A stretch of DNA of 64,000 nt from Candidatus Micrarchaeia archaeon (GCA_038874595.1 JAVZCB010000002.1:135850-199849); one strand, 5' to 3'. Shown: positions 5,600 through 57,127, numbered from the stretch's first letter. The notes: generated by a model not told the origin, from the letters alone. A program made the numbers and translations.

Positions 5600-5656
5600 A
5601 ATTCTAATATGTTCACATATTTATAAAAATTGCCGAATAGAATCAAAGGATAAGAA

Positions 5657-7396
5657 ATGAAAAGAATCTTGTTGCTGGTACTAGTTATTTGTGCGGTTGT
5701 AACAGCAAAGGATTATTCTATTGTTTCTGCAGACGAGAAAATAACTATAAAAGATAACGGCATAGTGCATATCACCGAAACAATAAACTATGATTTGTAC
5801 GATTGTAATGATAACAAATTCAAAGAGCTATACCTAACAAAACCAAGGGATTTGGAAATCAGAAATGCGCGAGGGTATTGTATTGGTGCTTTGTGCAATT
5901 TCAGGGTTGATGAGCCAGAAGTTTCTGTAAGCGGTGACAGGGAACTGATAAATGAGCTTGTTGGGGGCGGGTGCGGGAAGGTTACTGCTGTGTTTGAATA
6001 TGATGTAAAAGCAATTACAATTTACCCGGATACTTCACAGTTTTACTATAAGGTTTGGGGGGATAAGTGGGAGAAGCCTGCAAAGCTGAGTGTGAGTATT
6101 TACCTGCCCGGGAAAGCAAAGGAGACTGTATATTTTGTGCATTACGATTATTTTACATTTACACCTCCAACTAACTCCAGCAGTGGGAATATCATAAGCA
6201 TCAGTGCTGACCAACCGGCAAACCGGCTGCTTGAAATAAACCTACTGATGCCAAAAGAGTGGTTCAATGAGAACGGAGACTACTACTACAACAACAATAC
6301 GAGAAAGAAAGACATAATAAGTATTGAAGAGCGAACAATGTCAGCACTAAGTATTAAGCGCTTTGTTGATATTTTACTCCTGATTTTGTTTGTTGTATTT
6401 ATAACAATACCTTTTGCTGCTATAATCATATCATACCTGATTTTTGGAAAAGAACTTTCTGGTGAAGATGTTGGGTACAATGGATTGTACGAGTATGATC
6501 CACCTGAAAATAGGGGTGCGGCTGAAAGCATATTCTTTATAACAATGGATAAAGACTGCACTAAGAAGGATCTTGGAAATGCCCTCTCCTCAACAATGAT
6601 GGCCCTTGTAAACAAAGGTGCATTTGATATACAGGAGAGGGAAGTTAGCGGGCTCTTTGGGAAGACGAAAGAGATTGTATTTATTGTTAGAGAGCCAAAA
6701 GAAGAGTTGCTCGATTATGAAAAAATGCTGTTTGATTTTATGAAAGAGAAGGCAGTCAACGGAGAAATTAGTATGGATTCTTTTGCAAAAACAGTCGGCA
6801 AAACAAAAGAGTTTTATTTTTTCTCCCTAAAGTGGTGGAAAACAGTAATAAATCATATAGATGAAAACAAATTCGCAGATTACAAAGGATACTATATCCT
6901 TATGGCTATCATATTAATACACTTCTTTTTGTACTTTTTTGCCATAGTGCTTTTCTCATCAATAAATACTGTTATTCCCATAAATCTTTTTGCACTTATA
7001 GACTTTTTTTTGCTCATAATAGTTACTCCAAGAAAAAAAATTTGGGGAAGATGGACAAAGGAAGGAAGGATACTCAACCTCAAATGGGAAAATTTCAAGA
7101 AGTACTTATCAGATTTCAGCGCGCTTGAAGAACACCCTCCTTCAAGTGTAAAAATCTGGGACCATTATATGACGTATGCAATTGCGCTTGGAGTTGCGGA
7201 GAAAACAATAGAAGCAATGAAAAAAATAAGTCCCTTGGTGGTGCAACATTCAAGGGGCAACTATGTGTATGCAAACTATGGATTGTATACTTCTTTCAGT
7301 ACAAGTATGACCCCAAGCTACAAATCATCATCACGTGGAGGTAGAAGTGGCGGGTTTGGTGGCGGTAGGGGCGGTGGCGGCGGCGGTGCAAGATAA
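5657..7396 (+). CDS. DUF2207-like membrane protein with C-terminal Gly-rich tail
   Basis: Signal peptide, extracellular domain, internal TM helices and a terminal SRGGRSGGFGGGRGGGGGGAR tail. A TATA-like tttataaaaatt lies about 35 bp upstream. Confidence 0.5.
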   Translation: MKRILLLVLVICAVVTAKDYSIVSADEKITIKDNGIVHITETINYDLYDCNDNKFKELYLTKPRDLEIRNARGYCIGALCNFRVDEPEVSVSGDRELINELVGGGCGKVTAVFEYDVKAITIYPDTSQFYYKVWGDKWEKPAKLSVSIYLPGKAKETVYFVHYDYFTFTPPTNSSSGNIISISADQPANRLLEINLLMPKEWFNENGDYYYNNNTRKKDIISIEERTMSALSIKRFVDILLLILFVVFITIPFAAIIISYLIFGKELSGEDVGYNGLYEYDPPENRGAAESIFFITMDKDCTKKDLGNALSSTMMALVNKGAFDIQEREVSGLFGKTKEIVFIVREPKEELLDYEKMLFDFMKEKAVNGEISMDSFAKTVGKTKEFYFFSLKWWKTVINHIDENKFADYKGYYILMAIILIHFFLYFFAIVLFSSINTVIPINLFALIDFFLLIIVTPRKKIWGRWTKEGRILNLKWENFKKYLSDFSALEEHPPSSVKIWDHYMTYAIALGVAEKTIEAMKKISPLVVQHSRGNYVYANYGLYTSFSTSMTPSYKSSSRGGRSGGFGGGRGGGGGGAR

Positions 7397-7499
7397 GAGT
7401 ATGTTGGATTATTGCACAAATGCACTGCCATCGTTTTCTGCTTAACGGTGTGGATAGAATTCCCTCAATGTGCCCTCTTATACACCGCACTATAATATT

Positions 7500-9152
7500 T
7501 TATTGACATTGTAATGGTGGTTCTTTACTTCTTTCGGTGCTGTTTTGTGTATCTCTCTTTTTTATTGCCGCATCAATAAGAAACAGGAAAAGTGGTGCCG
7601 GCTTCTCAAGGCGGCTCTTAAACTCTGGGTGTGCCTGTGTACCAATACCAAGGCCGTTTGGCCATTCAACCATCTCAACAATGCCTGAATCCTTATGCCT
7701 GCCAGAGATAACAAGGCCGTGCTCTTCAAGGTCGGGCACAAACTCCGGGTTAACTTCATAACGGTGCCGGTGCCTCTCATCAACAAACTCAGAACCATAA
7801 TATGAATATGCCGTTGTGCCTGGGAAAACGTGCATTGTGTAGGAGCCAAGGCGCATTGTGCCTCCCTTCCTATCAATAAATTTCTGGTCTGGAAGCAGGT
7901 CTATAACAGGGTGTTTTGTTTCTGTGCTGAACTCTGTTGTGTGCGCATCATCCCATCCTAATACATTACGCGCATACTCAACGACCATCAGCTGCATACC
8001 AAGGCAAAGGCCAAGATAAGGGATATTGTTTGTACGTGCACAGTTGATTGCTGCAATCTTGCCTTCAATACCGCGTTTTCCAAAACCGCCAGGTACGATT
8101 ATGCCATTATACTTTGCCAGAAGTTGTGGCCCGCTCTCCTCAATTAAAGTAGATTCAACAAAATCTATAACCGGCTTTACATTGTAATGGGCGGCTGCGT
8201 GGATTATGGATTCGTAAACGGATGCATAAGCATCGCGTGTGGAAGTATATTTGCCTACAAGAGCTATGTGTACCTCTCCATTAGATGGTGATATAATGCG
8301 ATTAACAAGAGAGCTCCATGATGAGAGGTCTGGCGGGGTCTCATCCACATCTAATTTTGAGGATATTGCACGCATTATGCCCTGCTTGTTCAAAATGATA
8401 GGAAGCTCATAAATCGTACTTACAGTTGGATCATCATATACAAACTCTGGCTTGATGTTTGCAAATAAGGCAATTTTTTCTATGGCTTCCGCGCTGAGCG
8501 GCTCGTCCTCCCTGCACACAATAGCATCCGGGCGTAGGCCCAGGCTTTGTATGAGGCGGTTGGCGTGCTGTGTTGGCTTTGTCTTTGGCTCTCCCTTGGT
8601 AAGGCTCGGTACGCGCGTAAGTTGTATTGTCATAAAGTATTTTTCTTCATAGGATAACTGGCGGATTGCTTCAATGAAATATGAGTTCTCAAGGTCACCA
8701 ACCGTACCACCAACCTCTATAACAACAAAGTCGGCGTTTGTCTCGTCACCTAAACGGCGTATCCAGTCTTTAAGCTCATCTGTCAGATGAGGAATTATCT
8801 GGACATCGCGACCAAGGAAACGGCCCTCGCGCTCTTTTTGTATTAGGTGTTGGAATATCTTGCCGCCAGTTATGCTGGAAAATTTGGTCATAGGTATACC
8901 TAAAAACCTCTCGTAAGTGCCAAAGTCCATATCCACTTCAGAGCCGTCATCGAGCACAAACACCTCGCCGTGCCTGAAAGGGTTCATCGTCCCGCAGTCA
9001 ACGTTTAGGTAACCGTCAAACTTGAGCGGGACAACCTTGTAGCCTTTGAGTTGCAGAAGCTTGCAAATCGATGCGGTCAGTATTCCTTTCCCAAGGCCGG
9101 ACATGATGGAGCCGAGAATTGCGATATATCTCCTTTTGTTTGGCGCTTGCAT
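7500..9152 (-). CDS. pyrG: CTP synthase
   Basis: N-terminal synthetase motifs (ILGSIMSGLGKGI, KFDGYLNVDCGTMNP) and C-terminal class-I GATase (GLCLGMQ). 550 aa. Confidence 0.95.
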   Translation of the reverse strand: MQAPNKRRYIAILGSIMSGLGKGILTASICKLLQLKGYKVVPLKFDGYLNVDCGTMNPFRHGEVFVLDDGSEVDMDFGTYERFLGIPMTKFSSITGGKIFQHLIQKEREGRFLGRDVQIIPHLTDELKDWIRRLGDETNADFVVIEVGGTVGDLENSYFIEAIRQLSYEEKYFMTIQLTRVPSLTKGEPKTKPTQHANRLIQSLGLRPDAIVCREDEPLSAEAIEKIALFANIKPEFVYDDPTVSTIYELPIILNKQGIMRAISSKLDVDETPPDLSSWSSLVNRIISPSNGEVHIALVGKYTSTRDAYASVYESIIHAAAHYNVKPVIDFVESTLIEESGPQLLAKYNGIIVPGGFGKRGIEGKIAAINCARTNNIPYLGLCLGMQLMVVEYARNVLGWDDAHTTEFSTETKHPVIDLLPDQKFIDRKGGTMRLGSYTMHVFPGTTAYSYYGSEFVDERHRHRYEVNPEFVPDLEEHGLVISGRHKDSGIVEMVEWPNGLGIGTQAHPEFKSRLEKPAPLFLFLIDAAIKKRDTQNSTERSKEPPLQCQ

Positions 9153-9232
9153 GTGTATCAGCTATATTACGATCCAAACAATAAATATATGACTGGCCAA
9201 TAACTCAGTTTATTATAATTTGTTGAAATAAA

Positions 9233-10387
9233 ATGTGCATGCATAAGCCGATATGTATAGTAATCCTATTAATTCTCTTCTTATTTACCTCTATAACAAT
9301 CGCACTTGAGAATGCTAAAACTGAAGAGAATCAAAAAGATGGCCTAAGCGATACAATTAATATCGATTTTTATTATGGGATTGGGTGCCCACATTGCGCT
9401 GCAACTGAAAAAATATTTGAGAAGTTGAGTGCAGAGTACAAACTCAATATTACAAAGTATGAGGTATATCAAAATGCCGAAAATCGCCAGAGAATGTTCA
9501 AAGAGTATGAGAGATTCAATGTGAGTCTCAGCCAGGGCGGTGTGCCAACTTCTGTGATACGTGGGAAGGCTTTTGTTGTAGGCGAGCTTGCTGAAGAGCA
9601 GTGGAGGGAGCTACTTGATGCTGCGTGCAGTGAGGATACCTGCCCTGTTGGTGTTATAACGCAGAAGAACTTCAATATCATACACGAGAGAGATAGTACA
9701 TCTGCGTTAACCTGGCCGGTCTTGATTGGAGCGGCGCTTGTGGACTCTATCAACCCGTGCACAATTGCAATTATGGTTATCCTTATCAGTACTATTTTAT
9801 ACTCAAAAGGCAGGAAAGAGGCGCTCGTTGCAGGCATTATGTTTGCAGTGACTATTTATGTGATGTATTTCCTTTATGGGATTGGAATCATGAAAGCGGT
9901 TACAACTTTAGAAATAAGCAATTTGTTCTATGTTCTTGTTACGCTTGGCGCACTCATACTTTCAATTATGGAGCTTAATGCATATTTCAACTATAAGCCA
10001 GGGTTCTTTTCAGTGGAGATGCCCGTATGGCTAAGACCGCATGCGCACGAGGTAATTGAGAAAGCCACCACGCCTCTCGGAGTTGTTGTTGCGGCCGTGT
10101 TCTGCTCTTTGTTTTTACTACCGTGCTCATCCGGGCCATACCTTATGGTTCTCGGGATGATTGCAAAATCTGCAACGTTGCAGACTTTCACTTATCTTGC
10201 AGTTTATAACCTGTTCTTCATCCTGCCGATGATCGTGATAACTATATTGATATACTTTGGAAAAACCACAGTTGAGAAAATTGGTGAAATGAAAGAAATG
10301 TATGTAAGACAGATACACTTGGTTTCAGGTATAATACTGTTTGCTCTGTTTATCCTAATGATAAATGAGCTCCTAAAAATCGTATAG
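9233..10387 (+). CDS. thiol:disulfide interchange protein, thioredoxin domain fused to CcdA/DsbD-type membrane domain
   Basis: Signal peptide, CPHC thioredoxin motif, then multi-TM region with conserved NPC and LPCSSGP Cys motifs. Confidence 0.65.
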   Translation: MCMHKPICIVILLILFLFTSITIALENAKTEENQKDGLSDTINIDFYYGIGCPHCAATEKIFEKLSAEYKLNITKYEVYQNAENRQRMFKEYERFNVSLSQGGVPTSVIRGKAFVVGELAEEQWRELLDAACSEDTCPVGVITQKNFNIIHERDSTSALTWPVLIGAALVDSINPCTIAIMVILISTILYSKGRKEALVAGIMFAVTIYVMYFLYGIGIMKAVTTLEISNLFYVLVTLGALILSIMELNAYFNYKPGFFSVEMPVWLRPHAHEVIEKATTPLGVVVAAVFCSLFLLPCSSGPYLMVLGMIAKSATLQTFTYLAVYNLFFILPMIVITILIYFGKTTVEKIGEMKEMYVRQIHLVSGIILFALFILMINELLKIV

Positions 10388-17480: not shown

Positions 17481-17969
17481 CTATTCTTTCTTTTTCATTA
17501 TTTTACCATAAATATAGTATATATTTTTCCAATGTGTGCCTTCCCAGTATGCTTTATTGCAGGATGGACAAATCCAGAAGTTTCCCCCTTTCTCAATAAT
17601 ATCCTGGGGCACATGGCCATACGCTTCAGCCTGTGATATTTTTCTGAGCTCAACGTTGCAGATTGAGCAACGGGTCTTTTCCGGGAAGGTGAGCTCAATC
17701 CCAGTTACTGAAATTATATGCCTTATTTGCTCTACCGGGTCCGTGCTTTCAACAAGCACTGAAGGGATGTTTTTTGAGATGCACCGCACATAAACCTCCC
17801 TATCGCGCGTAACGAGTATGCGGCCTTCCTTTACTGCTGTTTCTATCAATTCAGTATCATTGCGTGGGTGAAAGTATGCTGTATCAACACCAAATATGCG
17901 GAGTAATATTGCTGTGTTCTTCAACATTTCATCAAGTATGAGTTTTTTCATCGGCACCACCACGAGCAA
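17481..17969 (-). CDS. Mut7-C/DUF82 family PIN-like RNase domain protein with C-terminal zinc ribbon
   Basis: KKLILDEMLKNTAILLRIFGVDTAY core and C-terminal C..C...C..C with YWEGTHW. Confidence 0.65.
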   Translation of the reverse strand: MLVVVPMKKLILDEMLKNTAILLRIFGVDTAYFHPRNDTELIETAVKEGRILVTRDREVYVRCISKNIPSVLVESTDPVEQIRHIISVTGIELTFPEKTRCSICNVELRKISQAEAYGHVPQDIIEKGGNFWICPSCNKAYWEGTHWKNIYYIYGKIMKKKE

Positions 17970-19926
17970 AAAGAGGGCTGTCTATCACTAATGATTCGAA
18001 TTCTCCACCTTCCCCGGCTATATTTATCCCATACCTTTTACTTAATTTTACAAGGATATCTATATCTTTAAGCGTGATCTCACGATTCAGCCACGATTTA
18101 TCGAGCCCTTCTGCTGCAACAGATGTGATTATAAACCTAAAACCGTCCTTTATTAGCCTACGCATGTGCATTTCCTGGTCAACGTGCCAAAGAGGGGAAA
18201 ATACGCGCAGGCCAAGCCTGTCACATACCGATTCTATACGAGTGCGCTGGTACTCTGAACTTATCGCACCTGTAACAACACCTTCAATATTGTATTTTTT
18301 TATTGCATCAAGAAGTGCCGTTTCAAGATCATAAAGCTCTCTCTCCTTTTCGCCGGCAGTCTCCTGCATTATGAGAGGGAGGCCCATGCGCGCAGCGTGC
18401 GTGCGAACGTTGTCTATCTCAGGTGTGTGGTATAAATATGAGTCCTTGTTCCGGCTCTTCAATGTGACAAGGCATTTTATATCATAATTGCGCTGGCTCA
18501 TAAGATAAAGAGCGTATGCGCTATCCTTACCACCACTGTAAAGTGCTGCGAGTGGAATATTCTTTTTGTGGTGTTTGCTAAGAAACTGGCCAATACTCAT
18601 TCCTTCCTTTGCGGCAAGCCTGCGCAGAAGAGCCATTGATTTTGTACCATATTGTGCTGCCTTTTTTGGGCGTGACCAGAATTTTTCACTGACATTATAA
18701 TACTCTCTTAAGATACGGCGCAATATTGCTTTGTTTGTAAGTTGATGCACTGAAAGAGAAAGTGAGTTTGTTACGACCTGCTTATCAAGAAAAGGCACCC
18801 TGAGCTCTATGTTGTTATACATTGTAATACAGTTGTCCCTGTAAAGGTCTCTTTCGTAAATTGATCTAAGAGAACTTACCTGTTCGTTGTGCATTGCCTC
18901 TGTTAAGCGGTCTTTTGCCAGGCTTTCATAATGGAGCGGCCGGAACCGCGCATAGCCAGCAAAAATATCATCCGCACCAATACCTGAAAAAAGGACTTTG
19001 ACCTTGTCTGCAGATGCTTGCCTTGCAGCAAAAAAGATGGGTATCGCTACGCCCACCTTTACAGAATCGCTTGAATCTATTACTTTACATATCTGTGGGA
19101 TTTCTTGTAAAATGGACTTTTCTGAAATTTCGGTTTCAACGTGGTCAAAGCCAAATGTGCGGGCAAATTCCTTTGAATATGTTGCATCTTCGGAATTCTT
19201 GTTGCAGTATGCCGTGTATAGTGTTATTTTTACGCCCTTCTCTGCAAGCCGGAGCGCTATCAGTGCCGAATCTACACCGCCTGAGAAAAGAACGCCTTGC
19301 TTGGCTTCAGCTATGCGCTTGTCAATCGCATCAAATAAGTAATCGCGCATTTCTTCGTAAGAGGTCTGCCTGCCGCTAAGAACAAATATATCTTTATAAT
19401 GAGACCTCGCTGTGCCATTAGTCACATCATAAAATATTACCGTGCGTGGGTGAAGCTCACGCAGTATCCCTGGGTTTGCCTTTCTCTCAGATGCTATGAA
19501 GAGAGGATTGAATGAAAAGAAGAGTGGGTTAACACCTAAAGGGTCACGAAAAAGAACGAGTTGGCCTTCCCTATAATATACACATGCAAAATCGCCATCA
19601 AGAGAATCAATTATTTTTAGGATTGACTTTTCAGAGTTGTCTGAATTTTCAAGAAGGCAAAATAGGAGCTCTGCATCGTTCCTTGCCTGGATGCCGTGCT
19701 CTTCCGCAAGCTGTTTCCAGTTATATATTTCACAGTTTGCAGCAAGGATACCTTTACCTGAAAATGGCTGGACTATATTATGGCCAACAACCGAATGTAG
19801 AAAATGTGAAAATGTTATTCCATCTCTTTCTATTCGTGAATGGTTGTCTTTACCCCTATGAGATATTGAAGATTCTGCTGTGAAGAGGTTTTTGTTACTC
19901 GTGTTACATACAATAATCCCGCACAT
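17932..19926 (-). CDS. asparagine synthetase (glutamine-hydrolysing) fused to a C-terminal Dph6/MJ0570-like (DUF71) ATP pyrophosphatase domain
   Basis: MCGII class-II GATase start, start moved to Met9 so that Cys2 is catalytic. AsnB PP-loop VLFSGGVDSALIA. A second PP-loop ALYSGGKDSAYAL ... EGGEFESLV is typical of diphthine-ammonia ligase-like domains. Confidence 0.7.
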   Translation of the reverse strand: MCGIIVCNTSNKNLFTAESSISHRGKDNHSRIERDGITFSHFLHSVVGHNIVQPFSGKGILAANCEIYNWKQLAEEHGIQARNDAELLFCLLENSDNSEKSILKIIDSLDGDFACVYYREGQLVLFRDPLGVNPLFFSFNPLFIASERKANPGILRELHPRTVIFYDVTNGTARSHYKDIFVLSGRQTSYEEMRDYLFDAIDKRIAEAKQGVLFSGGVDSALIALRLAEKGVKITLYTAYCNKNSEDATYSKEFARTFGFDHVETEISEKSILQEIPQICKVIDSSDSVKVGVAIPIFFAARQASADKVKVLFSGIGADDIFAGYARFRPLHYESLAKDRLTEAMHNEQVSSLRSIYERDLYRDNCITMYNNIELRVPFLDKQVVTNSLSLSVHQLTNKAILRRILREYYNVSEKFWSRPKKAAQYGTKSMALLRRLAAKEGMSIGQFLSKHHKKNIPLAALYSGGKDSAYALYLMSQRNYDIKCLVTLKSRNKDSYLYHTPEIDNVRTHAARMGLPLIMQETAGEKERELYDLETALLDAIKKYNIEGVVTGAISSEYQRTRIESVCDRLGLRVFSPLWHVDQEMHMRRLIKDGFRFIITSVAAEGLDKSWLNREITLKDIDILVKLSKRYGINIAGEGGEFESLVIDSPLFARGGADEKTHT

Positions 19927-19937
19927 CCTACCCGATA

Positions 19938-21314
19938 TTGAACAAACCATATTTATTATATTTAGGTTTCCGAGAATATTCTATGCCTCCAAACCCAATT
20001 CTCATAGCATACTCTGAGATAGGAACTAAAGGTGAAACAACCAGACCGCGTTTTGAAAAGATACTGCTGAATAATATAAAGAGGTTGGGTGCAAAAATTA
20101 AAATATCCAGACAAAGCAGGAGAATATTAGTTTATCCGATAACTGAAAAGGATAATGCATTCTTATTAAGCAAATTAAGGTATGTGTTTGGGATAAAATA
20201 TTATGCACCGGTTAAAAAAACCACGTTTAATAGTATTGAGGAGATTGCAGATTTTGTTGCTGAAATATATTGTAAAAAGGTTGTTGGAAAAACATTCAGG
20301 GTGACTGTGCACAGGGTTGGAAGACATAACTTTAATTCAATTGATGCACAAAGGGTAATCGGTGCCAGGCTGGTTGAATGTGGCGGGAAGGTCAATCTCA
20401 ACAATTTTGAAATGGAAATTGCTGTTAATATAAAGGATAACGTTGCGTTTGTGTTTGATGAAAAGATATGTGGCCCAGACGGCCTGCCTCTTGGTTCTGA
20501 AGGTAAAGTGCTTGTATTATTCTCAGGGGGTATTGACTCGCCTGTTGCTGCGTGGCATATGATGCGCCGCGGGTGCTCGCCAACTTTCCTTTTTGTAAAT
20601 TTAGGGGGAAGAGATAACTTAACAAAGGTGTATAAAGTATACAAAAAACTCGTTGATGTTTGGGGATGTGAGAATGCTCCTTTTCTGGTTGCCGATGGTA
20701 ATAAAATCATCTCTGAAATAACAAAAAAAATAAAACCATCTTATAGGCAAGTTGTGCTAAAAAGGGCATTCTATGAGATTGCTGAGAAGGTTTGTAGGGA
20801 GTATGGATTAGATGCAATTGTTACTGGAGAATGTGTTGGCCAAGTATCTTCCCAGACTATAAAAAACCTGTGGGCAATAGGACACAATACAAACTTGCTC
20901 GTGCTCAGGCCCCTCATTGGAATGAACAAAGAAGATTGTGTATGTAAGGCACAAGAAATTGGTACGTATGATCTCTCTATAGAAATTGGCGAGCTTTGCA
21001 ACATATCAAAGGGAAGTGTAAAACTTTCTGCGAGGCCTTACGAGGTTGATAGGGAATATTCACATATAAGAGATGTAGTTAAAAACATAAATGTAACTCA
21101 AGTTACACACATCCGGGCTACGCACCATAAAAATAATATCACAAAAACCATAGATATAGATAAAGAAAAAATAAACTACTCTGAGCTTGACCCTAAAGTA
21201 GAATACGTCATTGTATGCAAGGATGGCGTGCGGGCATCTATTGAATGCGACATCCTGCGCGGTATGGGATATATGTGTACTAGCAGGAAAAAACATTCTT
21301 CGGATAATAAATAA
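19938..21314 (+). CDS. thiI: tRNA 4-thiouridine synthase ThiI with C-terminal rhodanese domain
   Basis: THUMP region, PP-loop VLVLFSGGIDSPVAAW, and rhodanese active-site loop VIVCKDGVRAS. Confidence 0.85.
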   Translation: MNKPYLLYLGFREYSMPPNPILIAYSEIGTKGETTRPRFEKILLNNIKRLGAKIKISRQSRRILVYPITEKDNAFLLSKLRYVFGIKYYAPVKKTTFNSIEEIADFVAEIYCKKVVGKTFRVTVHRVGRHNFNSIDAQRVIGARLVECGGKVNLNNFEMEIAVNIKDNVAFVFDEKICGPDGLPLGSEGKVLVLFSGGIDSPVAAWHMMRRGCSPTFLFVNLGGRDNLTKVYKVYKKLVDVWGCENAPFLVADGNKIISEITKKIKPSYRQVVLKRAFYEIAEKVCREYGLDAIVTGECVGQVSSQTIKNLWAIGHNTNLLVLRPLIGMNKEDCVCKAQEIGTYDLSIEIGELCNISKGSVKLSARPYEVDREYSHIRDVVKNINVTQVTHIRATHHKNNITKTIDIDKEKINYSELDPKVEYVIVCKDGVRASIECDILRGMGYMCTSRKKHSSDNK

Positions 21315-22723: not shown

Positions 22724-22996
22724 CTATCTCTCTTTATAGTTGTCTTCTACAATAACAACATCACCGACAGATTTTACTTTTTTATAAAGGATGCTTTTAT
22801 CCTTAAGAACCTGCCTGGCCTCCTCACGTGAGCTAATGCTGGTGAGAGGTTCCATAGAGATGCGAATTACCTCGCCTTTCTCTAGATCCACGATAACGTC
22901 CTGGACTTTACCAACAAACTTACCGCTTGCCGTGAAAATGTCCATGCCATAGAGGTCTGCGATGTTTAATGCCATTTTACCACCTACACTATACAT
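22724..22996 (-). CDS. PRC-barrel domain protein
   Basis: MALNIADLYGMDIFTASGKFVGKVQDVIVDLEKGEVIRI matches the PRC-barrel pattern. About 90 aa. Confidence 0.6.
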   Translation of the reverse strand: MYSVGGKMALNIADLYGMDIFTASGKFVGKVQDVIVDLEKGEVIRISMEPLTSISSREEARQVLKDKSILYKKVKSVGDVVIVEDNYKER

Positions 22997-23040
22997 TATA
23001 TAGTAAAGTATTTATTCTTTATAGAGTAGTCTCTTCCTAT

Positions 23041-23304
23041 ATGACAATCCCATTTATTCGTGAGCGACCCGCGGCAATAATGTTACTTTTAAGAAATACA
23101 ACAAAAACGTGGTGCGTTTCCTCACTCTCTCGTGAAGCAGGGCTCACATATCTTCACACACTGCATCTTTTATCCCAGATGTATAATTTAGGGTTGGTGG
23201 ACTATAAAAAAGAGGGAAGGAGGAAAGTAGTTTTCTTAACAGAAAAAGGAAAAAGTATATCCTCAACCTTAAACCAGCTGATTGATGATTTAAAAGAACA
23301 ATAA
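23041..23304 (+). CDS. winged-helix transcriptional regulator
   Basis: LSREAGLTYLHTLHLLSQMYNLGLVDYKKEGRRKVVFLTEKG is a wHTH recognition helix plus wing. Start placed at the internal Met. Confidence 0.5.
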   Translation: MTIPFIRERPAAIMLLLRNTTKTWCVSSLSREAGLTYLHTLHLLSQMYNLGLVDYKKEGRRKVVFLTEKGKSISSTLNQLIDDLKEQ

Positions 23305-23308
23305 ATAA

Positions 23309-23674
23309 TTAGACAACCCTTAATGTGATTTCCTTAAGTGTACTCCCAATTATGTGTGAGAACCCTCTATAGTGTTTGTTTGCGGAAACCTTTACAGTAT
23401 AACTCCCCGGCGTTGTTTTTGGGTGTGAGAATAAATCCACAAAAAACACCTTCTCCTCATTTGGGAGCATTTTTCCAATTCGGATTTCTTTTTTGAAAAC
23501 AATACCTGTCTTATCAAACCCAACAGCCGTCGGTATATCCACAACAAGGCTTGCAAGAACATCCTCGGGCTCCTTGTTTTTGAGCCAAACCTTCATTTGT
23601 ACAGGTCTCTCATCACCTTTTTTCAATCTGAGTGGTGATAACTCGATTTTCATATCAAACGGTGAACCAGCCAT
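23309..23674 (-). CDS. hypothetical beta-rich protein (121 aa)
   Basis: ORF only. Divergent from the ATPase gene. Confidence 0.35.
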   Translation of the reverse strand: MAGSPFDMKIELSPLRLKKGDERPVQMKVWLKNKEPEDVLASLVVDIPTAVGFDKTGIVFKKEIRIGKMLPNEEKVFFVDLFSHPKTTPGSYTVKVSANKHYRGFSHIIGSTLKEITLRVV

Positions 23675-23740
23675 GGTATCAACTCCACAATGTGTAATAT
23701 AGTATACAATTATTTTTATAATTTCACAAATAACATAAAT

Positions 23741-26041
23741 GGCATGTGTGACATGTCTATAAAAGGAAATACGCTCGTTTTTGACTGCATTAATTCGCCA
23801 TATGAATTTATGAGCCCGGAATTTATAGCAAACAACATTCGTGCAATGACGACGCTTGTCCGCACAGATTTTGAGAAGATAAGGTATGAGGAGCAGCTGG
23901 TGTTTGAGTTATCGGGTGAAAAAGCAGAGATAATTCTTTCATACATCCGCTTTCTCAAACAGGTGGAAAAGCTCCTTATGAACAAGCAGATATATGGAAG
24001 AGAGGATGATGATTCATATGTGCTTAGGAAAACAACACTTTCAAAAGTTTATGAAGAGCTTATGATGAACCCGCTTTTTGCAGAGCGTACGATAAACGAG
24101 TATAACGAGCCGCAACCTACAAAATCTGCATTTTATGAGGCTTACAAGGCATACAAGGCATGGCTTAAAGGGATACAGCAGAAGCTCCAATCAACAAAAA
24201 TGTACCAGCTTGTAAAGGAAAAGGGAGACATGCGGCAGGCATTTATTTACCTTCTCAACATGAGGGTAATGAAGCTTGTAGATTCCCTCGAACTGCTTCT
24301 TCCGGAGGGTTCCAAACCGCTTGATAAACCAGGGGCAGCTTATGAGCTTGATTATGGATATAAAATTACAATATATGATGTTCCAGGTTCTGAATCCTAC
24401 TGGTATATTATAGATAATCCAATAATTAATTCGCTTCCAGAGGAGGTTATTGTTGAAGCAAGAAAGCTTATTGAAAGAGATATGGGGGCCGTCCGCGGTA
24501 TCCAGGTAAAAGATTACAATCTTTTGTTGGATGAAAAGACGCGCGAGTATCGCAAGTATTTCTTTGAGTGGGCAGATGAGCATAAAGTTCAATTAACGCC
24601 CGAACAGAGCCTCGTCCTAGCACGCGCATGTGCATCGTGGGTTGCAGGCCTAGGCGAACCCATAGAGGCAATATGTCTCGATAAGCGCAACATAACAGAC
24701 ATTTACATTGATTCTGAGAATGCCCCAATATATATTGACCATGCCAATTTTGGGATATGTCATACAGTATATAGGTATAATTCAAAGCTAGTAGACCAGC
24801 TGTTCTTTAACATTTTGGCAACAGACAAGTCAGCAGTTTACGGCCCGCAAAACCCCATAGTTGATGTTGTTATGAAGCGCCTAAATATGCGATGCCACTT
24901 ACAGGGCCCACCAGCAACGTTCGGGGAAAGGCAGGGTGCGCTACGTTTGATGAAACAGACCCCATTCACATACGCGGAATATTTACGCTATCACGCCTTT
25001 TCGGCCTTTTTTGCAGGTTACGATGATACGATGGTTTTTCTTGGAACTTCAGAGGCCGTGCTTGGCTTGAAAGGTGTAGGTAAAACTTCATTTACAGCGG
25101 CAAAGATGATTGCGATTGGAACAAAAACAAGGATAATCCCCATACAAGACATAGAGGAGATACCAGTTGCTGCCTATAGGAAACGCGGGTTTCATATAGG
25201 TGTGATGCGCTCAATGGCTTCAGATAAAGAGGTTGAGCAGGCGACAGCCGGCTCAGCACTCTCACTCGTTGCGCTTACAAGCGCAACACTTCGTATGGGC
25301 GATGCTGCACTCATAATAAACGAGGTCCGCTCACGCGCAGCAATACAAGGTATAATAAATCTTCTGAACACCCAGCCGGGCGTATTTGTCCTTTACAATT
25401 TGCATGCTGAGAGCCTTAAAGATATCCGGGATAGGTTAGAGCTCGTATTCGGTATTCCGGGAGCAAGCATGTTTGCAACTGACAGGTATACTTTCCTGAA
25501 GAAGGTGCGTTTTGGGAGAAAGAGTGCAACATACCGCCTCCTCGGCGCCGCATATGAGAGTAATATAGAAGAGAAGCGGTTTGAGGAGGTTTTTGTATTT
25601 GAAAGGGGGAAAGATATAGAATCATCACAATGCAAAGCGCTGTTTGTTGAAAATCCAGAGCTTAACAAGTGGCTCATTGATGATATAAATCTTGGTGATT
25701 TGCAGAAAAACCTCTCGCTAAAATTTATACCCCCTGCTTTGCAACGGCGCGCAGATGACCGCGGCATTGCACCTGAACAGATGATAATGCAGGCAGCGTT
25801 TAAGGGTAAGGTGTATTCACAAATATATAGGGCGTATGAAAAGTATGGGTATTACGAACTGCTTGAAATGGATTTTGTGCTTAAGGCATCCTCTCTAGCA
25901 AATAAGCTGCTCAAATCGCTTGAAGACGAGGAAGGAAATGTTAATTATGAGGTTGTTGATAGAGAATGGGAGGCAGAATTCCAGCAATTGCTATCTGAAG
26001 AGCTGGAATTTCTTCGCCTTAAGAAAGAGCAGGCGCGGTAA
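23741..26041 (+). CDS. divergent secretion-superfamily ATPase (FlaI/VirB11/TadA class) with long N-terminal extension
   Basis: Ordered motifs: Walker A GLKGVGKTS; Asp box TRIIPIQDIEEI; Walker B DAALIINEVRS (catalytic Glu kept); His box VLYNLHAES. Start set at Met18 so the TATA atttttataattt sits about 25 bp upstream. Confidence 0.5.
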   Translation, partial: GMCDMSIKGNTLVFDCINSPYEFMSPEFIANNIRAMTTLVRTDFEKIRYEEQLVFELSGEKAEIILSYIRFLKQVEKLLMNKQIYGREDDDSYVLRKTTLSKVYEELMMNPLFAERTINEYNEPQPTKSAFYEAYKAYKAWLKGIQQKLQSTKMYQLVKEKGDMRQAFIYLLNMRVMKLVDSLELLLPEGSKPLDKPGAAYELDYGYKITIYDVPGSESYWYIIDNPIINSLPEEVIVEARKLIERDMGAVRGIQVKDYNLLLDEKTREYRKYFFEWADEHKVQLTPEQSLVLARACASWVAGLGEPIEAICLDKRNITDIYIDSENAPIYIDHANFGICHTVYRYNSKLVDQLFFNILATDKSAVYGPQNPIVDVVMKRLNMRCHLQGPPATFGERQGALRLMKQTPFTYAEYLRYHAFSAFFAGYDDTMVFLGTSEAVLGLKGVGKTSFTAAKMIAIGTKTRIIPIQDIEEIPVAAYRKRGFHIGVMRSMASDKEVEQATAGSALSLVALTSATLRMGDAALIINEVRSRAAIQGIINLLNTQPGVFVLYNLHAESLKDIRDRLELVFGIPGASMFATDRYTFLKKVRFGRKSATYRLLGAAYESNIEEKRFEEVFVFERGKDIESSQCKALFVENPELNKWLIDDINLGDLQKNLSLKFIPPALQRRADDRGIAPEQMIMQAAFKGKVYSQIYRAYEKYGYYELLEMDFVLKASSLANKLLKSLEDEEGNVNYEVVDREWEAEFQQLLSEELEFLRLKKEQAR

Positions 26042-26044
26042 CCA

Positions 26045-26809
26045 TTAACTTTCCTCAAGATATACCCCATAAGGCACAAACACCAACAAGCCGTCTTTAT
26101 CATATATTATCAGCTCATCTCCCCCTGTGTTGAATATGTGCTGGCACAAGCATATTTTTCCAGCATTTTCTTTTTCGTCACAACAATTTTCTTCGATGCG
26201 CACAATCTCTTTAGGTGCGAGCCGTAAGTTTCTTTTGAACCTGTGCGATGCGCTTGTATCCCGTATGGTTATTTCTGTATCAACATTAATATCACACAAA
26301 TTTTCAATAGTGAACCCACCATTATCCCATTTTCCAAAGATGCATTCCTTGTAAAGGCTAGCCTTCCACATACACCCAGGTATATCTCTCCCCATGCTTT
26401 CAGCCTCGAAATACCTTTTCCAGTTAATACCCTCTTCTCTTCCATAATAAACATTTGCAAAGCCATTTGCCAGCATTGCATGGTTTACGTTTTTACCATT
26501 ATAATATACCTCTGCCAAGGCCCTTCCGTATTTTTCCTTTCCGTAAATTATAACCGACACCTCCTTCCCCCAAATTAAAGAGGTAAGGAAATTCTTCGCC
26601 TCCTCATAACAAAGCTCACCTTTTTCAGGCGTGTTTATACCAACCAAACGATACTTATTACCAGCATTATCTTCAAACGTATCGCCATCAATTACGTTGT
26701 ACACGAGCACTTTCTGTGATGTGACTCCAAACAAATAATCAACAACCAGGATGGCTGCAATAATAAAAATAGCAATCGCAACACCGTGCTGCCAGCGTAT
26801 CTTTATCAT
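26045..26809 (-). CDS. membrane-anchored staphylococcal-nuclease (SNase/thermonuclease)-like nuclease with C-terminal Cys-rich domain
   Basis: N-terminal TM (VAIAIFIIAAILVV). SNase motif VIDGDTFEDNAGNKYRLVGINTPEKGE. A Cys-rich tail of about 120 aa. Start chosen at MIKIRW, placing the palindromic TATA tgttttaaaca about 26 bp upstream. Confidence 0.65.
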   Translation of the reverse strand: MIKIRWQHGVAIAIFIIAAILVVDYLFGVTSQKVLVYNVIDGDTFEDNAGNKYRLVGINTPEKGELCYEEAKNFLTSLIWGKEVSVIIYGKEKYGRALAEVYYNGKNVNHAMLANGFANVYYGREEGINWKRYFEAESMGRDIPGCMWKASLYKECIFGKWDNGGFTIENLCDINVDTEITIRDTSASHRFKRNLRLAPKEIVRIEENCCDEKENAGKICLCQHIFNTGGDELIIYDKDGLLVFVPYGVYLEES

Positions 26810-32707: not shown

Positions 32708-32780
32708 ACATTTGGAAAAATCCTAAATAAGCTTTTTGGAAATTTTTTCATATTATAAACATTTTCTGTCCTTTAATTTT

Positions 32781-35700
32781 ATGCGCGTGCCATTTTTTAT
32801 CTTAGCATTGCTTTTTGCACTTTCTCCATGCTTCGCTTTCAATGCAACTTACCTGGACCCAACAATTGAAAAGCCGTGGGAATTTAACAGCGTCTCGCTA
32901 CCAGATTTTATAACAAACGTGCTTCTCAATAGCCCTGGCAGGACAGACATTGACAATAGCTATATGTTTGCGCTTTCACCGGAAGTATCTTCACAGCTGA
33001 GCGAAGAGATACGCCACGCTAAGAATGCAGACCAGAATCTGAAAACGCTCGGTGAAAGTAGATACCTCCTCAAAGATGCAATCCAGAGTCATCTTAACGA
33101 GACAGTTGGAAAATCTGCCGCAGCAATCGCTTACATGCTTGTTCCTATGCTTGGGATGTTTTTGGCCATTGATGCGGGAACAGGGGCGATATATGAGGTT
33201 TCAGATCTTGGGGCGGAGATGCTATCAATATGTAAAAACCATTATACGGCAGCGGTAGCGGCAGTCGAGGAAAGCGAGCTGGCATACAACGGCCTGCTAT
33301 CAAAGGTTTCTATGGGTTACAGGGAGCTTTGGCTTATGGGTGCTCTCAATCCTTCCTATAAAGGCAGGTATGCCAACGACATCGCACAGCTAGAGTCGCG
33401 CCTTGCATCAATAGATGGCAAGCTGCTGCGTGAGCGGGAAGCCAGCATTAAGAAATATGCACATATGACTGCAAATGACCCGTCAGCTTATCATCCTCTT
33501 GTTTCAGAGTCAGTGTTCCAGGCCAGGTACCTGCTTGATGGGCAGGAATCAGCATTCTCAAAGCTTATTTTTGCATACACAGCCCAGAATTCAATAAAAG
33601 AGGGCCTTATCAAAGAGCGCGAATCAGCAAAGTCTTCCGCAGAAACACGTGCCGGGCAAATATCTGCAGAATACTCTGAGGTAAGTAAGAAATATGGGCA
33701 GATAACAGATGCAGATGTTGTATACTTTGGTATTGCTACGCTGGACACGCTTGATTCACCTTCAACCCATATTTCAAAAGCTTCTGAAAACATTGCAGAA
33801 TACACTTCCATCATCTCAGAAGGTGACAGGGTTTATGCTGCAAAATCATACGGATATGTTATAGACTCAATAAATGCATATTACTTAGCGCTTTCAAAGA
33901 TGGATAGTGCATCATATAACCTGAAAGAGGCGGCGCGGCGCGGAATCCTGATAGTCAGCTCTGCCGAAAATATAACACAAAAAGAGTATATTGCAGCAAC
34001 AGCTGCAGCATCTGCATTTATTCCTAAGACTGCGGCAGAGCAACAGCAGCTCTCTCTTGCTCGTAGCATGATCGAAAAGGCAGAAAAAGAAATGGCTCTT
34101 GCCAGCAATACTCCTGCTGAGAGGATATCACATCTTAAAATTGCGCTGAACAGCCTGCGCCTTGCCCGTGCATATCTTTCTCCAGACGAAGTGTTCCGTG
34201 CAAATGCCAAGGACTCAGCGGTGAGCTCACTTGATTATTTGAAATCGGTGATTGACCGTGCAAAAACAGATTCAATCGATGTTTCTTATGAAGAATCATA
34301 TTATAAAAGCAAAATGCTTGCATTGCAGAGCGGCAATTTAGCCGCTGCAGAAATGGTAAACATCTCACTCACATGCAACAACCTGACGGAACAAATATTT
34401 ATGCGTGGCGCTGCACAGTATTCACATCTTTCATCACGTTATGCCACATTGCTACCGCTGGCAACGTATTTTGAATCGCTTGATGGCAAGCCATTGAAAG
34501 AGTACACATTGCTCAACCCATACATAGACGCCACTGGCACTTTTGATAAATATCTATCGCTCGGGCATTACAAGGAGATAACTGGGCTCATAGCAGGGCT
34601 CGAAGCGCAAATACGTGTAAAAACGAAAGAGCTCATCCGCGAATCGCTTGAAAGAAACGCTGTTGTGAGCGTCAATTATGACAACGCAACGATTGTTTTA
34701 GATGTGCCTATCACGCGCAAGGTTGATGTATCTACATACAGTATTCTGGATTTAGAGTACAAAGGGCCTATTTCAACGAGCATTCGAATTCCCTATGACG
34801 TTTCAAGATCAAAGGCCAAGTATGATACGGCAGGGCTTTCTTATAGTTATACAAACAACCAGCTCAATATTCTTATCAACCAATACACCCCAAATAAGAT
34901 GTATACAATTTCTTTTGAGGACACGCAGGTTCTTGCAAGAACACAATCCGTTAAAAGGGAATCTACCCTTATTACGCCAACGCTGCTCAGGGTAAAAGTT
35001 GAGAGAAAAATAACCTCGCTCGGAACCCCCTATCTTAAAATCCCGGCAAACTATGATTATTCATATGTGTTGTATTATGATGGAGAGTACGTTGGGAGTT
35101 TTAATTATGATGCGGAAATAGCACGACCGATACCTGCAGGGGAGCATATATTAACAATGGTATATTCAATTGAAAACCCTTTTGTTGCTACATTGAACAG
35201 CGTATCTAGCACAAAAACCAGCACAACAATGTCTGTTATCATTAAAAACACAGTCCCATTTGATATTAGCGACGCTATGATAAGCTATGACATTCCGGCA
35301 GTATCCCCATCTTCTGTATTAGTATCATCTTCGGATTGTGAAATAAAATCAACTGCCAGCACACATTTTCCAACATACACGCGTCTTACCATAAACGTGA
35401 AGGCATTTTCAGCCAGCTCAAAATGTACTTTTGACATCCATGCAAGCACACCTATAAGCAAGGAGTATATTGAGGAGGAAATTGTACGCTTATCTAAAGA
35501 CAATACTGCATTGCAGAGTAAAGAGGTGGAAAACCACCTTAACAAGGCACGGAACGCATTCGAGACTGGAAAGTATGAAGATGCTCTTAAAGCAATCTCC
35601 GATGCGGACAAGACGCTGGTTGAGGCAAAGCGAGCAACCGAGCAAGCCAATCGCCAGGGAGAAGAGATAGAAAGGTTATCAAAACAAACCGCCTCGGTGT

Positions 35701-36650
35701 TAGCCAACTTATCAAATATGAATGATGTGGAAGTCCAAAAAGCGCTTGCCAAAATCAAGTCCTACTACGATTCCGCAAATGCTGAGGCCGAGCCTGCAAA
35801 GAAGCTTACATTCCTGCGAAAAGCAAACGATGAGGTTCTGGCTTTGAACACGCTTGTATACAGTAAGATATCCTCCATTTCAGAACGCCTTAATTCAGTA
35901 AAGCAGAAATGGCTTTTACTTATAGATAAGGGATACTCAAAAAGCATGCCGCCAGAGGTTGCGGAAGTAGAGTCCGTGCTTGCGATGGCATCTTCTTCCC
36001 CAAATCCAGATTCAAGCACGTTTTTGCAGCTTGGTAAGGCCTCCTCAATTCTAGATTTGCTTGAAATATCAGTAAAGAACGCAGACAAAAATGCATCTGA
36101 ATGGGAATCTTCACTTAAAGAGAGGTTTAAGTCATCAGTTACCATGTTAAAGGCCGCAATAGCCCAGCTCACAAAAGCGTGCGGTACAAAGTGCCCCCAA
36201 GATATGGTTTCTTATTCCCAGTCACTATTATCCTTGAATCCACAAACACCGTCTGAATATTCTATTTCGATAGATACAATAAACAAAACGCTTTCCAGCA
36301 TTAACACCTATATATCTACAGAGCGCTCAGCCGCAAACACGGCAATATCAGAGCTTAAATCAATATCCTTAACAATATCGGACCCGCGCGTGAAACAGGT
36401 GCTAACACCAAAAATCCAGGAGATTGAGTCTATGTATGTTGCGGGAGAATATTCTCGAGCAAAAGAGGCAGCAATTGCAGTCAAAGAAAGCCTCACAGGC
36501 ACACCACAGAAACCAGCAGGTGATTATACCCTTATCCTTGCTGGACTTGCAGTAATTGCAATCTCCTTTATAATATTAAAGATGCGTGAGCGCGGCGCAA
36601 AATCAAATGAAGCAATTCAAGAGGCAAAACAGCTAAAACGCGAAAAATAA
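32781..36650 (+). CDS. very large (about 1290 aa) Ala/Ser-rich coiled-coil surface protein with signal peptide and C-terminal TM anchor
   Basis: Signal MRVPFFILALLFALSPCFA. Long helical low-complexity body. C-terminal TM LILAGLAVIAISFIIL followed by basic residues. Confidence 0.6.
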   Translation: MRVPFFILALLFALSPCFAFNATYLDPTIEKPWEFNSVSLPDFITNVLLNSPGRTDIDNSYMFALSPEVSSQLSEEIRHAKNADQNLKTLGESRYLLKDAIQSHLNETVGKSAAAIAYMLVPMLGMFLAIDAGTGAIYEVSDLGAEMLSICKNHYTAAVAAVEESELAYNGLLSKVSMGYRELWLMGALNPSYKGRYANDIAQLESRLASIDGKLLREREASIKKYAHMTANDPSAYHPLVSESVFQARYLLDGQESAFSKLIFAYTAQNSIKEGLIKERESAKSSAETRAGQISAEYSEVSKKYGQITDADVVYFGIATLDTLDSPSTHISKASENIAEYTSIISEGDRVYAAKSYGYVIDSINAYYLALSKMDSASYNLKEAARRGILIVSSAENITQKEYIAATAAASAFIPKTAAEQQQLSLARSMIEKAEKEMALASNTPAERISHLKIALNSLRLARAYLSPDEVFRANAKDSAVSSLDYLKSVIDRAKTDSIDVSYEESYYKSKMLALQSGNLAAAEMVNISLTCNNLTEQIFMRGAAQYSHLSSRYATLLPLATYFESLDGKPLKEYTLLNPYIDATGTFDKYLSLGHYKEITGLIAGLEAQIRVKTKELIRESLERNAVVSVNYDNATIVLDVPITRKVDVSTYSILDLEYKGPISTSIRIPYDVSRSKAKYDTAGLSYSYTNNQLNILINQYTPNKMYTISFEDTQVLARTQSVKRESTLITPTLLRVKVERKITSLGTPYLKIPANYDYSYVLYYDGEYVGSFNYDAEIARPIPAGEHILTMVYSIENPFVATLNSVSSTKTSTTMSVIIKNTVPFDISDAMISYDIPAVSPSSVLVSSSDCEIKSTASTHFPTYTRLTINVKAFSASSKCTFDIHASTPISKEYIEEEIVRLSKDNTALQSKEVENHLNKARNAFETGKYEDALKAISDADKTLVEAKRATEQANRQGEEIERLSKQTASVLANLSNMNDVEVQKALAKIKSYYDSANAEAEPAKKLTFLRKANDEVLALNTLVYSKISSISERLNSVKQKWLLLIDKGYSKSMPPEVAEVESVLAMASSSPNPDSSTFLQLGKASSILDLLEISVKNADKNASEWESSLKERFKSSVTMLKAAIAQLTKACGTKCPQDMVSYSQSLLSLNPQTPSEYSISIDTINKTLSSINTYISTERSAANTAISELKSISLTISDPRVKQVLTPKIQEIESMYVAGEYSRAKEAAIAVKESLTGTPQKPAGDYTLILAGLAVIAISFIILKMRERGAKSNEAIQEAKQLKREK

Positions 36651-56661: not shown

Positions 56662-56698
56662 TACTATGAGGCATTCTGATAACCTGCAAAAATACCTG

Positions 56699-57127
56699 AT
56701 GCATTACAGTTCAAGCAGGCGTGGGCAGGTGGCAGTTGAGTTCCTTGCAGTGGTAGCGTTTTTCATTCTCATAAGCGTGCCTTTGTTTATGTACTTCTAC
56801 ACGGCTGCTCCGCAGAAGGAGTACTATGCAAGCCTGTCCCAGGCCGAGGCGGCGGCAGACGAGCTAGTAAAGTATGGCGAGCTTGTCGGCACACAGGGCA
56901 ACGGCACCACGATTTCGCGCGTTATTGTTTTTCCCAAGTATGCTACGCAGGTGTCTTTCAACGCATCGCACGTTGCGATACATGTTGAGTATTCTGACCT
57001 TAAGACGGATGTCGTGCGGACCGGGCCGGTGAGGTTTTCACAAAGTACTTATATGCTGCCCGCCGGTGGCAGTTACGTTTTCATATTTAAGAACATAAAC
57101 GGTAATGTGTATGTCACTCAAGGGTAA
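56699..57127 (+). CDS. archaeal type IV pilin (DUF361-like, RRGQ|VAVEFL)
   Basis: Canonical +GQ.A.EF class-III signal. Start moved to Met12. Confidence 0.6.
   Translation: MHYSSSRRGQVAVEFLAVVAFFILISVPLFMYFYTAAPQKEYYASLSQAEAAADELVKYGELVGTQGNGTTISRVIVFPKYATQVSFNASHVAIHVEYSDLKTDVVRTGPVRFSQSTYMLPAGGSYVFIFKNINGNVYVTQG

Follow-up and report, generated by a model that had tools for sequence, protein, structure and literature searches.

A divergent FlaI/GspE-type ATPase conserved in Micrarchaeota without an adjacent platform gene

The ATPase gene and its domain architecture

The stretch of DNA analysed here, 64,000 nt from a Candidatus Micrarchaeia archaeon (GCA_038874595.1, JAVZCB010000002.1:135850-199849; the window in the following), encodes a long and divergent ATPase of the FlaI/GspE type. 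An uninterrupted open reading frame (ORF) extends from 23690 to 26041 on the plus strand and, as an earlier sequence-only reading of the window had noticed, could specify 783 amino acids. Translation most likely begins with the ATG at 23744, three nucleotides away from the position 23741 given in that reading, so that the gene spans 23744-26041 (+) and the protein has 765 residues. The methionine at 23744 is the point where all aligned homologs start, and the product from this codon is 100% identical to a 765-aa NCBI protein (P0001) that carries the name "ATPase, T2SS/T4P/T4SS family [Ca. Micrarchaeia archaeon]" (for type II secretion system, type IV pilus and type IV secretion system). A TATA-box-like element, TTTTTATAA, is visible in the sequence at 23713-23721 (+), some 23 nt 5' of the ATG. 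It is located in the 69-nt spacer that separates the ATPase gene from the divergently transcribed upstream gene, and its position supports both the start at 23744 and an independent promoter for the ATPase. The element, recognized by eye, is a putative ATPase promoter, and the start of the longest ORF at 23690 falls within the promoter region.

The four boxes that are characteristic of secretion ATPases are present in the order usual for the superfamily, and the unusual GLKGVGKTS and IINEVRS sequences that the earlier reading had pointed out are found at residues 441-449 and 524-530. GLKGVGKTS is the Walker A motif (25064-25090, +), which aligns with GETASGKTT in afGspE and with GxRGSGKTS in the outgroup relatives. 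The Asp box IIPIQDIEEIP (residues 464-474; 25133-25165, +), with IQDIEE at residues 467-472, has Gln in place of the first acidic Glu of the outgroup sequence IITxEDTxEIP. The Walker B motif AALIINEVRS (residues 521-530; 25304-25333, +), with IINE at residues 524-527, retains Glu527, and Asn replaces the usual Gly of the outgroup GEVRG. Finally, the His box YNLHAES (residues 551-557; 25394-25414, +), with NLHA at residues 552-555, corresponds to GTIHG in the outgroup and TLHA in afGspE. In an alignment of 58 family members, the motif residues are invariant, including the Walker A Lys and Thr, the Asp-box Asp and Glu, the Walker B Glu and the His-box His. The two atypical positions, Gln for Glu in the Asp box and Asn for Gly in Walker B, are equally invariant in the 58 sequences. 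Altogether, about 150 alignment columns do not vary, and each nucleotide-binding residue that was tested is among them.

An AlphaFold2 (AF2) model built on 58 homologs has a predicted local distance difference test (pLDDT) score of 80.7. The N-terminal module (residues 1-312; 23744-24679, +) is modelled with high confidence (pLDDT 90.6) as two beta-hairpins, a helical bundle and a small beta-sheet, followed by helices. It has no match among solved structures (best Foldseek E 0.69). The stretch that resembles the N-domain of FlaI and GspE (residues 336-387; 24749-24904, +) aligns to afGspE from residue 138 onward. It contains two invariant Cys-His pairs, C339-H340 in FGICHT and C384-H385 in MRCHLQ, in which one might guess a candidate metal site. 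The RecA-like domain is followed by a beta/helical C-terminal tail (residues ~620-765; 25601-26038, +) with a pLDDT of about 90. Pfam has no match for the N-terminal 312 or the C-terminal 153 amino acids.

Superfamily membership and the DPANN-wide family

The classification of the protein as a divergent ATPase of the FlaI/GspE/VirB11 class, proposed from the sequence, is supported by NCBIfam, phmmer, Foldseek and hhalign. The Pfam part of the hidden Markov model check gave no match: for the window ATPase and a family representative (P0121), no family was found at E<=0.1, and the gathering score of PF00437 (T2SSE) was not reached. Among 120 listed homologs, five have a precomputed PF00437 match. 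NCBIfam models for TadA (6.6e-11), FlaI (3.5e-9) and VirB11 (5.6e-8) match over residues ~287-591, with scores that are all far under the curated cut-offs. A phmmer search against the solved structures finds afGspE (2.6e-4) and FlaI. Foldseek with the AF2 model retrieves afGspE (1.4e-16), FlaI (1.7e-15), CpaF (1e-12), and VirB11, DotB and PilT (~1e-6). The model matches the two-domain fold of the solved superfamily members, an N-domain and a RecA-like C-domain, although this fold match rests on a model with pLDDT below 50 at residues 460-528. The NCBIfam, PDB sequence, fold and profile-link evidence together place the protein within the T2SS/T4P/T4SS secretion-ATPase superfamily, despite the missing PF00437 match. 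As a kind of ATPase, the protein is already known, since NCBI annotates it as "ATPase, T2SS/T4P/T4SS family" or "TadA".

The best structural matches, afGspE (PDB 2OAP) and FlaI (PDB 4II7/4IHQ), cover both the N-domain and the ATPase domain and share the order of Walker A, Asp box, Walker B and His box with the window ATPase. Compared to them, the window ATPase has ~195 extra N-terminal residues, a longer C-terminal tail and an identity of 16-17%. In contrast to FlaI, it is not accompanied by FlaH, FlaJ or FlaX. In the micrarchaeon Mia14, archaellum genes are absent (PMC5498576).

The gene had been described as an orphan. This is correct in the sense that it has no platform neighbour (see below), but not in the sense that it lacks relatives, because at least 450 full-length homologs can be found by protein search. 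In a scan with one genome per species, the gene was detected in 191 genomes. The 120 listed homologs are 753-849 aa long and 50-88% identical to the query, at 96-98% query coverage, and nearly all of the named ones are labelled Micrarchaeota. The window ATPase is identical to a protein of the Candidatus Micrarchaeia archaeon assembly GCA_038891275.1. The DPANN host that had been suggested earlier is a member of the Micrarchaeota, and the surroundings of the window ATPase are archaeal housekeeping genes (Cdc6/Orc1, tyrosyl-tRNA synthetase (TyrRS), ThiI, RNA cyclase (RTC), fibrillarin, topoisomerase, DNA ligase and GatD). A profile of the family (A1) was compared with 1.84 billion representatives, in a library clustered at 50% identity, where the divergent Micrarchaeota group forms one cluster. 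It found a single full-length Micrarchaeota representative with 1236 bits. The next matches are proteins of 700-800 aa at ~165 bits, which are aligned from profile position ~4-55 onward and are PF00437-positive (1e-20 to 1e-25).

Beyond the Micrarchaeota, there is a DPANN-wide family of ~760-aa proteins annotated as "type II/IV secretion system ATPase subunit" (e.g. P0159, P0300, P0352, and P0139/P0144 from Altiarchaeota). It has at least 4813 members, with Woesearchaeota, Nanoarchaeota, Aenigmatarchaeota, Altiarchaeota and Diapherotrites labels. The proteins are of the same size as the window ATPase and share with it the N-terminal ~300-aa module and the C-terminal tail. In hhalign, the divergent group aligns with this family with a probability of 100% (E 1.3e-62, 697 columns, 18% identity), from residue ~7 to residue ~752 of the window ATPase. 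Both the long N-terminus (hhalign columns 22-312) and the helical tail therefore characterize the DPANN-wide family as a whole. The P-loop is preceded by ~430 residues in the window ATPase and by ~265 residues in FlaI and afGspE. The ~430-aa N-terminal extension of the sequence-only reading is thus not private: the true surplus is ~195 aa, and the DPANN-wide family shares it end to end. The motifs of the family are ordinary, with GxRGSGKTS, EDTxE (EDTxEIP), GEVRG and TIHG instead of GLKGVGKTS, IQDIEE, IINEVRS and NLHA in the Micrarchaeota form. Cys-x-x-Cys motifs in the N-terminal module of the family are lost in the Micrarchaeota form, and PF00437 recognizes the family, but not the window ATPase. 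A published name for the family was not found in the literature searched. It may be covered by one of the archaeal VirB11-family clusters arCOG01817, arCOG01818 or arCOG01819.

No outgroup protein reaches more than 203 bits against the family profile. The nearest outgroups (150-200 bits) are of the Diapherotrites type, "Micrarchaeota"-labelled, or from Altiarchaeota, and proteins from Woesearchaeota, Nanoarchaeota and Aenigmatarchaeota reach ~110 bits. The pattern fits vertical descent inside one DPANN subgroup, to which we take the nearest outgroups to belong according to the species tree. In a neighbour-joining tree, which is too crude to place the clade, the divergent proteins branch at the family's base, via a long stem. 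A divergent-type and a canonical-type long ATPase on one contig were not found among the sequences compared.

Platform genes, neighbourhoods and conservation

In the outgroups, the ATPase has a partner. In five lineages (L086/87, L088/89, L090, L091 and L092), the ATPase gene is directly adjacent to, or overlaps with, a downstream gene for a protein of 628-735 aa with 8-9 predicted transmembrane segments. The partner proteins are mutually homologous (1e-57 to 1e-108), the one in L091 has a weak T2SSF match, and a profile of three of them matches the TadC of a canonical Micrarchaeota locus (L085) with 4.7e-6. Judged from these similarities, the ~630-735-aa partner is a TadC/FlaJ-like platform. 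Four of the five lineages were counted as having pilin-like genes nearby, the exception being L090. In L088, six genes whose products have N-termini of the class-III-signal type come after the platform gene, in L091 there is a gene with a weak T4SS_pilin match, and in L092 runs of small genes without Pfam match flank the ATPase-platform pair. The arrangement is that of a standard ATPase-platform-pilin operon. Among the small genes 5' of the pair in L091 (Altiarchaeota), one encodes a 270-aa lamin-tail (PF00932) protein (4998-5810, -).

The Micrarchaeota form differs in this respect, with a platform beside the ATPase in 0 of 81 loci, as against five of the five outgroup lineages. The absence of an adjacent FlaJ/TadC gene, noted by the sequence-only reading, was borne out beside the ATPase and also across the entire 64-kb window, and a hydropathy screen of the ATPase neighbours in the Micrarchaeota loci did not reveal a platform either. 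The loss of linkage is not confined to the proteins with derived motifs. Two "Micrarchaeota"-labelled proteins with ordinary motifs (P0505 and P0498) also have no adjacent platform. Unlinking from the platform may thus have preceded or accompanied the sequence divergence. The "Micrarchaeota"-labelled ATPases at L093 6001-8247 and L095 6001-8247 are 748 aa long, have ordinary motifs, are PF00437-positive, and are not followed by a platform gene, in contrast to those of the five other outgroup lineages.

Canonical pilus loci are present in the same phylum. At L085, such an operon (5409-9932, -) and the divergent ATPase gene are arranged back to back. The operon comprises a 640-aa T2SSE ATPase (PF00437 1.9e-31), two T2SSF/TadC genes, and a pilin with class-III signal. 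The locus demonstrates that the canonical and divergent ATPase types are distinct and able to coexist. Mia14 has two ATPase plus TadC loci (MIA14_0170-0177 and MIA14_0252-0260) and one FlaK-like prepilin peptidase (PMC5498576). The canonical pilus ATPase belongs to the same superfamily as the divergent one, but the two are only ~24% identical, over the core alone, and have different N-termini. Unlike the divergent ATPase, the canonical one is operonic with TadC and recognized by PF00437 with the above E-value. Pilins or platform of the canonical system could be common to both ATPases.

The context of the ATPase in Micrarchaeota was surveyed by clustering 1260 ORFs from 81 loci. There is no universal neighbour, and the largest ORF cluster is represented in at most 26 of the 81 loci. 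The recurrent neighbours are each confined to a single clade, which indicates clade-specific synteny. In the clade of the window (8 loci, ATPases at least 71% identical), the genes hyp83, PRC barrel, winged helix-turn-helix (wHTH) and hyp121 are found on the 5' side, and a convergent staphylococcal nuclease (SNase) gene on the 3' side. In a second clade, SRP54 lies 5' and a RecJ-like gene 3', and in a third clade, a DRG GTPase gene lies 5' and an Asn-synthase-like gene 3'. In the largest clade (~28 loci), SecF, SecD and one or two Ser/Thr kinases are encoded 5' on the same strand, and an aminotransferase gene is located 3', before a pilin-like cluster on the opposite strand. In this clade, the ATPase gene directly and co-directionally follows SecF, SecD and the kinases at L020, L035, L048, L051, L058, L069 and other loci. 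The kinases are of the Hanks type, with visible HRDLKPxN, DFG and APE motifs. Three to four pilin-like genes face the ATPase across the aminotransferase gene, and in ~20 loci of this clade such genes are only 1-3 kb from the ATPase. Taken together, the ATPase gene in Micrarchaeota is alone under its own putative promoter, without a conserved neighbour.

Within the phylum, the ATPase is highly conserved. In comparisons over the same genome pairs, its identity is 79% compared to 60% for SecD and 63% for SecF, 80% compared to 69% for DNA ligase and 77% for Rpb7, and 57% compared to 51% for the DRG GTPase and 60% for SRP54. Conservation is thus on par with SRP54, and above SecD/F, DNA ligase, Rpb7 and the DRG GTPase. 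For the pilin-like genes, the corresponding values are ~80% for the ATPase and ~40% for the pilin-like proteins. The pattern consists of one large sequence jump away from all outgroups and, inside the phylum, very strong constraint thereafter.

In the window, five consecutive pilin-like genes are located at 54485-58008 (+), 28 kb from the ATPase. Their N-termini resemble class-III signals: the ORFs of 189, 536, 153, 155 and 163 aa contain RRGF, RRGF, RRGQ, TRGQ and KRGQ, respectively, each followed by ~20 hydrophobic residues. The ORFs were picked by this motif, and the Pfam model Class_IIIsignal did not match at E<=0.1 in the four copies that were scanned. No ATPase or TadC gene lies alongside the cluster, and a prepilin peptidase (FlaK/PibD) was not found in the window. 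Homologs of the first two proteins are encoded beside the canonical type IV pilus locus of L085. The five genes are candidates for substrates of a type IV pilus-like system.

Among the other genes of the window, a 121-aa protein without family match is encoded divergently from the ATPase at 23309-23674 (-) and paired with the wHTH gene (22969-23304, +), for which matches are weak (HTH_45, 2.6e-4). The pair is no more than 4 kb away from the ATPase in 12 of the 81 loci, in three clades and with rearranged gene order. At 17932-19950 (-), a fusion protein of 664-672 aa combines glutamine amidotransferase, asparagine synthase and diphthamide-synthase-like (Diphthami_syn_2) domains. The gene at 32736-36650 (+) codes for 1304 aa, with hydrophobic segments towards the two termini. 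Its product has no match in Pfam and may be a large surface protein.

Possible roles of the ATPase

The window protein is the Micrarchaeota form of the DPANN-wide ~760-aa FlaI/GspE-type ATPase, and it is somewhat more probable than not that it still acts as a pilus-like motor, via a platform that is encoded elsewhere. The whole architecture of the family is kept, from the N-terminal ~300-aa module through the FlaI-like N-domain and the RecA-like P-loop domain to the helical tail. In view of the invariant Walker A Lys and Thr, Walker B Glu, and Asp-box and His-box residues, the ATPase would form a hexamer and hydrolyse ATP. It would drive the assembly of pilin-like proteins with class-III signals, through a TadC/FlaJ-type platform from elsewhere in the genome. 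Candidate substrates would be the products of the five genes at 54485-58008 and, in the largest clade, of the clusters 1-3 kb from the ATPase. That canonical pilus parts exist in the phylum is clear from the TadC genes and class-III pilin of L085, and from the TadC genes and FlaK-like peptidase of Mia14.

Several observations do not fit easily with a motor for pilus assembly. A platform that belongs to the divergent ATPase was found at none of the 81 loci. Six-frame translations of the window and of 1.3 Mb of DNA from Micrarchaeota were searched with profiles from three and from five outgroup partners, and the ~700-aa partner profile detected no platform other than the L085 TadC, which is part of the separate canonical locus. 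This locus has its own 640-aa T2SSE ATPase, so that its pilins do not obviously depend on the divergent ATPase. When the pilin-like clusters of clade D and of the window were compared by profiles, only the signal-peptide region matched (E >=0.008), and orthology is not shown. The Asp box has Gln for the usual Glu, and the Pfam T2SSE model is blind to the protein. The AF2 model has pLDDT below 50 at residues 460-528 (25121-25327), from the Asp box to Walker B, despite near-invariance of this region. Finally, conservation far above that of the pilin-like genes, and also above that of SecD/F and DNA ligase, is unusual for the motor of a surface appendage.

A changed function is an alternative that we consider possible, but doubtful. 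According to this explanation, the ATPase lost its operon partner and was recruited to another essential job that is not standard pilus assembly. It could act as a PilT-like antagonist or second motor on the platform of the canonical pilus ATPase, or it could work in the cytoplasm, as a motor or regulator with a link to protein export or signalling. The sequence jump and subsequent freeze, with 1236 bits for one 50% cluster and ~200 bits at most for the outgroups, argue in this direction, as do the derived Asp-box and Walker B motifs, the SRP54-like conservation, and the lack of a platform beside the ATPase at all 81 loci. So does the existence in the phylum of a separate canonical locus with ATPase, two TadC proteins and pilin (L085; PMC5498576). 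Moreover, the gene is co-directional behind SecF-SecD and kinases in the largest clade, and near SRP54 in another. The same option has been raised for another divergent clade of archaeal T2SSE proteins by Makarova et al. 2016 (PMC4858521). However, the architecture is fully retained, including N- and C-terminal modules that no family other than the platform-coupled one possesses. Neighbourhoods with SecDF, kinases or SRP54 do not extend beyond one clade each, and since P0505 and P0498 are unlinked despite ordinary motifs, unlinking alone is no sign of a new function. The more detailed scenario of divergence in one burst after separation from the platform, into a new essential role as either a PilT-like or regulatory motor or one linked to export or signalling (SecDF, Ser/Thr kinases, SRP54), which would have made it one of the phylum's most constrained proteins, appears unlikely.

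Bacterial PilT and PilU resemble the divergent ATPase in their way of working rather than by family, as T2SSE-family ATPases whose genes come without a platform. PilT is frequently encoded away from the pilus operon and shows higher conservation than the extension ATPase. PilT does not have the long N-terminal module, and its Foldseek match to the window ATPase is weaker (~1e-5 to 1e-6). The comparison is one of analogy, and no sign in support of a retraction role was seen here. If the divergent ATPase did have a PilT-like role, this would be notable, because archaea encode no members of the PilT family (COG2805) according to Makarova et al. 2016 (PMC4858521).

The sequence-only reading had put forward a different explanation, in which a device driven by the ATPase and the adjacent SNase form a module for DNA uptake or nucleic acid scavenging. 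The nuclease gene (26045-26809, -) encodes 254 aa by the NCBI start, in an ORF that extends to 26917 (290 aa). It is next to the ATPase gene and specifies an N-terminal anchor and a Cys-containing extra module, as described in that reading. The SNase domain is recognized by PF00565 with 1.5e-15 (58 bits, gathering cut-off 21). The protein matches solved thermonucleases with 1.6e-8 and has kept the equivalents of R35, E43 and R87. The DGDT Ca-site motif of the Staphylococcal nuclease family is present, with Asn at the D40 position. An N-terminal anchor and a C-terminal module of ~125 aa are additions with respect to this family. The hydrophobic anchor comprises residues 10-29 and is preceded by K3 and R5. 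Six Cys residues do not vary in seven homologs, as would suit an extracellular protein. From these features, the nuclease is probably active and outward-facing. In the homologs from close relatives (L007-L012), the signal segment is followed by a lipobox-like Gly-Cys. In the window copy (26723-26809), the corresponding residues are Gly-Val, and the protein may be anchored by an uncleaved signal. The ~125-aa C-terminal module has no Pfam match; a suspected lamin-tail-like domain was likewise not confirmed by Pfam.

Although the nuclease is real, probably active and directed outwards, and although host-dependent DPANN cells plausibly need imported nucleotides, the uptake module is very improbable, and as a conserved module it is refuted. 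The two genes run towards each other on opposite strands, their stop codons separated by 3 nt, and cannot share a transcript. They abut in six of the eight loci of the window's clade, but in none of the 73 other loci, and even within the clade the SNase gene is 8 kb away in L009, and the downstream neighbour in L011 is not an SNase gene. TyrRS, Cdc6, ThiI and RTC are syntenic in the same eight loci, so that the pairing represents ordinary local synteny. A few close relatives share the gene pair, but solely within this background. In the outgroups, the ATPase is not paired with a nuclease, and an SNase gene flanks it in none of the five lineages. No ComEC-, ComEA- or DprA-like gene is present among the Pfam families of the scanned genes and ORFs in the window. 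The SNase is independent of the ATPase, a secreted or membrane-anchored nuclease, and plausibly scavenges nucleic acid. An inactive or decaying relic, an ATPase-dead paralog kept by chance, could account for the missing Pfam T2SSE match, the Asp-box Gln and the low AF2 confidence over the catalytic core, but is hardly credible for an intact reading frame in at least 450 proteins and 191 species genomes, with ~150 invariant columns that include all tested nucleotide-binding residues, and with conservation above most housekeeping neighbours. Such conservation also speaks against a dN/dS near 1 and against frequent frameshifts in the orthologs.

For annotation, the data imply that the T2SS/T4P/T4SS-family ATPase name is correct, and that the protein is not one half of a DNA-uptake module. 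The ATPase/platform pair of the DPANN-wide ~760-aa family likewise includes an N-terminal ~300-aa module that has no solved structural relative. The literature searched contains no description of a phylum-wide, derived and platform-less ATPase clade in Micrarchaeota, or of its housekeeping-level constraint. Micrarchaeota are DPANN archaea that depend on a host, with which they are suspected to make contact through surface appendages. With its presence in at least 191 species genomes, conservation at the level of SRP54, and no platform gene, the ATPase is a good candidate for an essential, lineage-specific machine.

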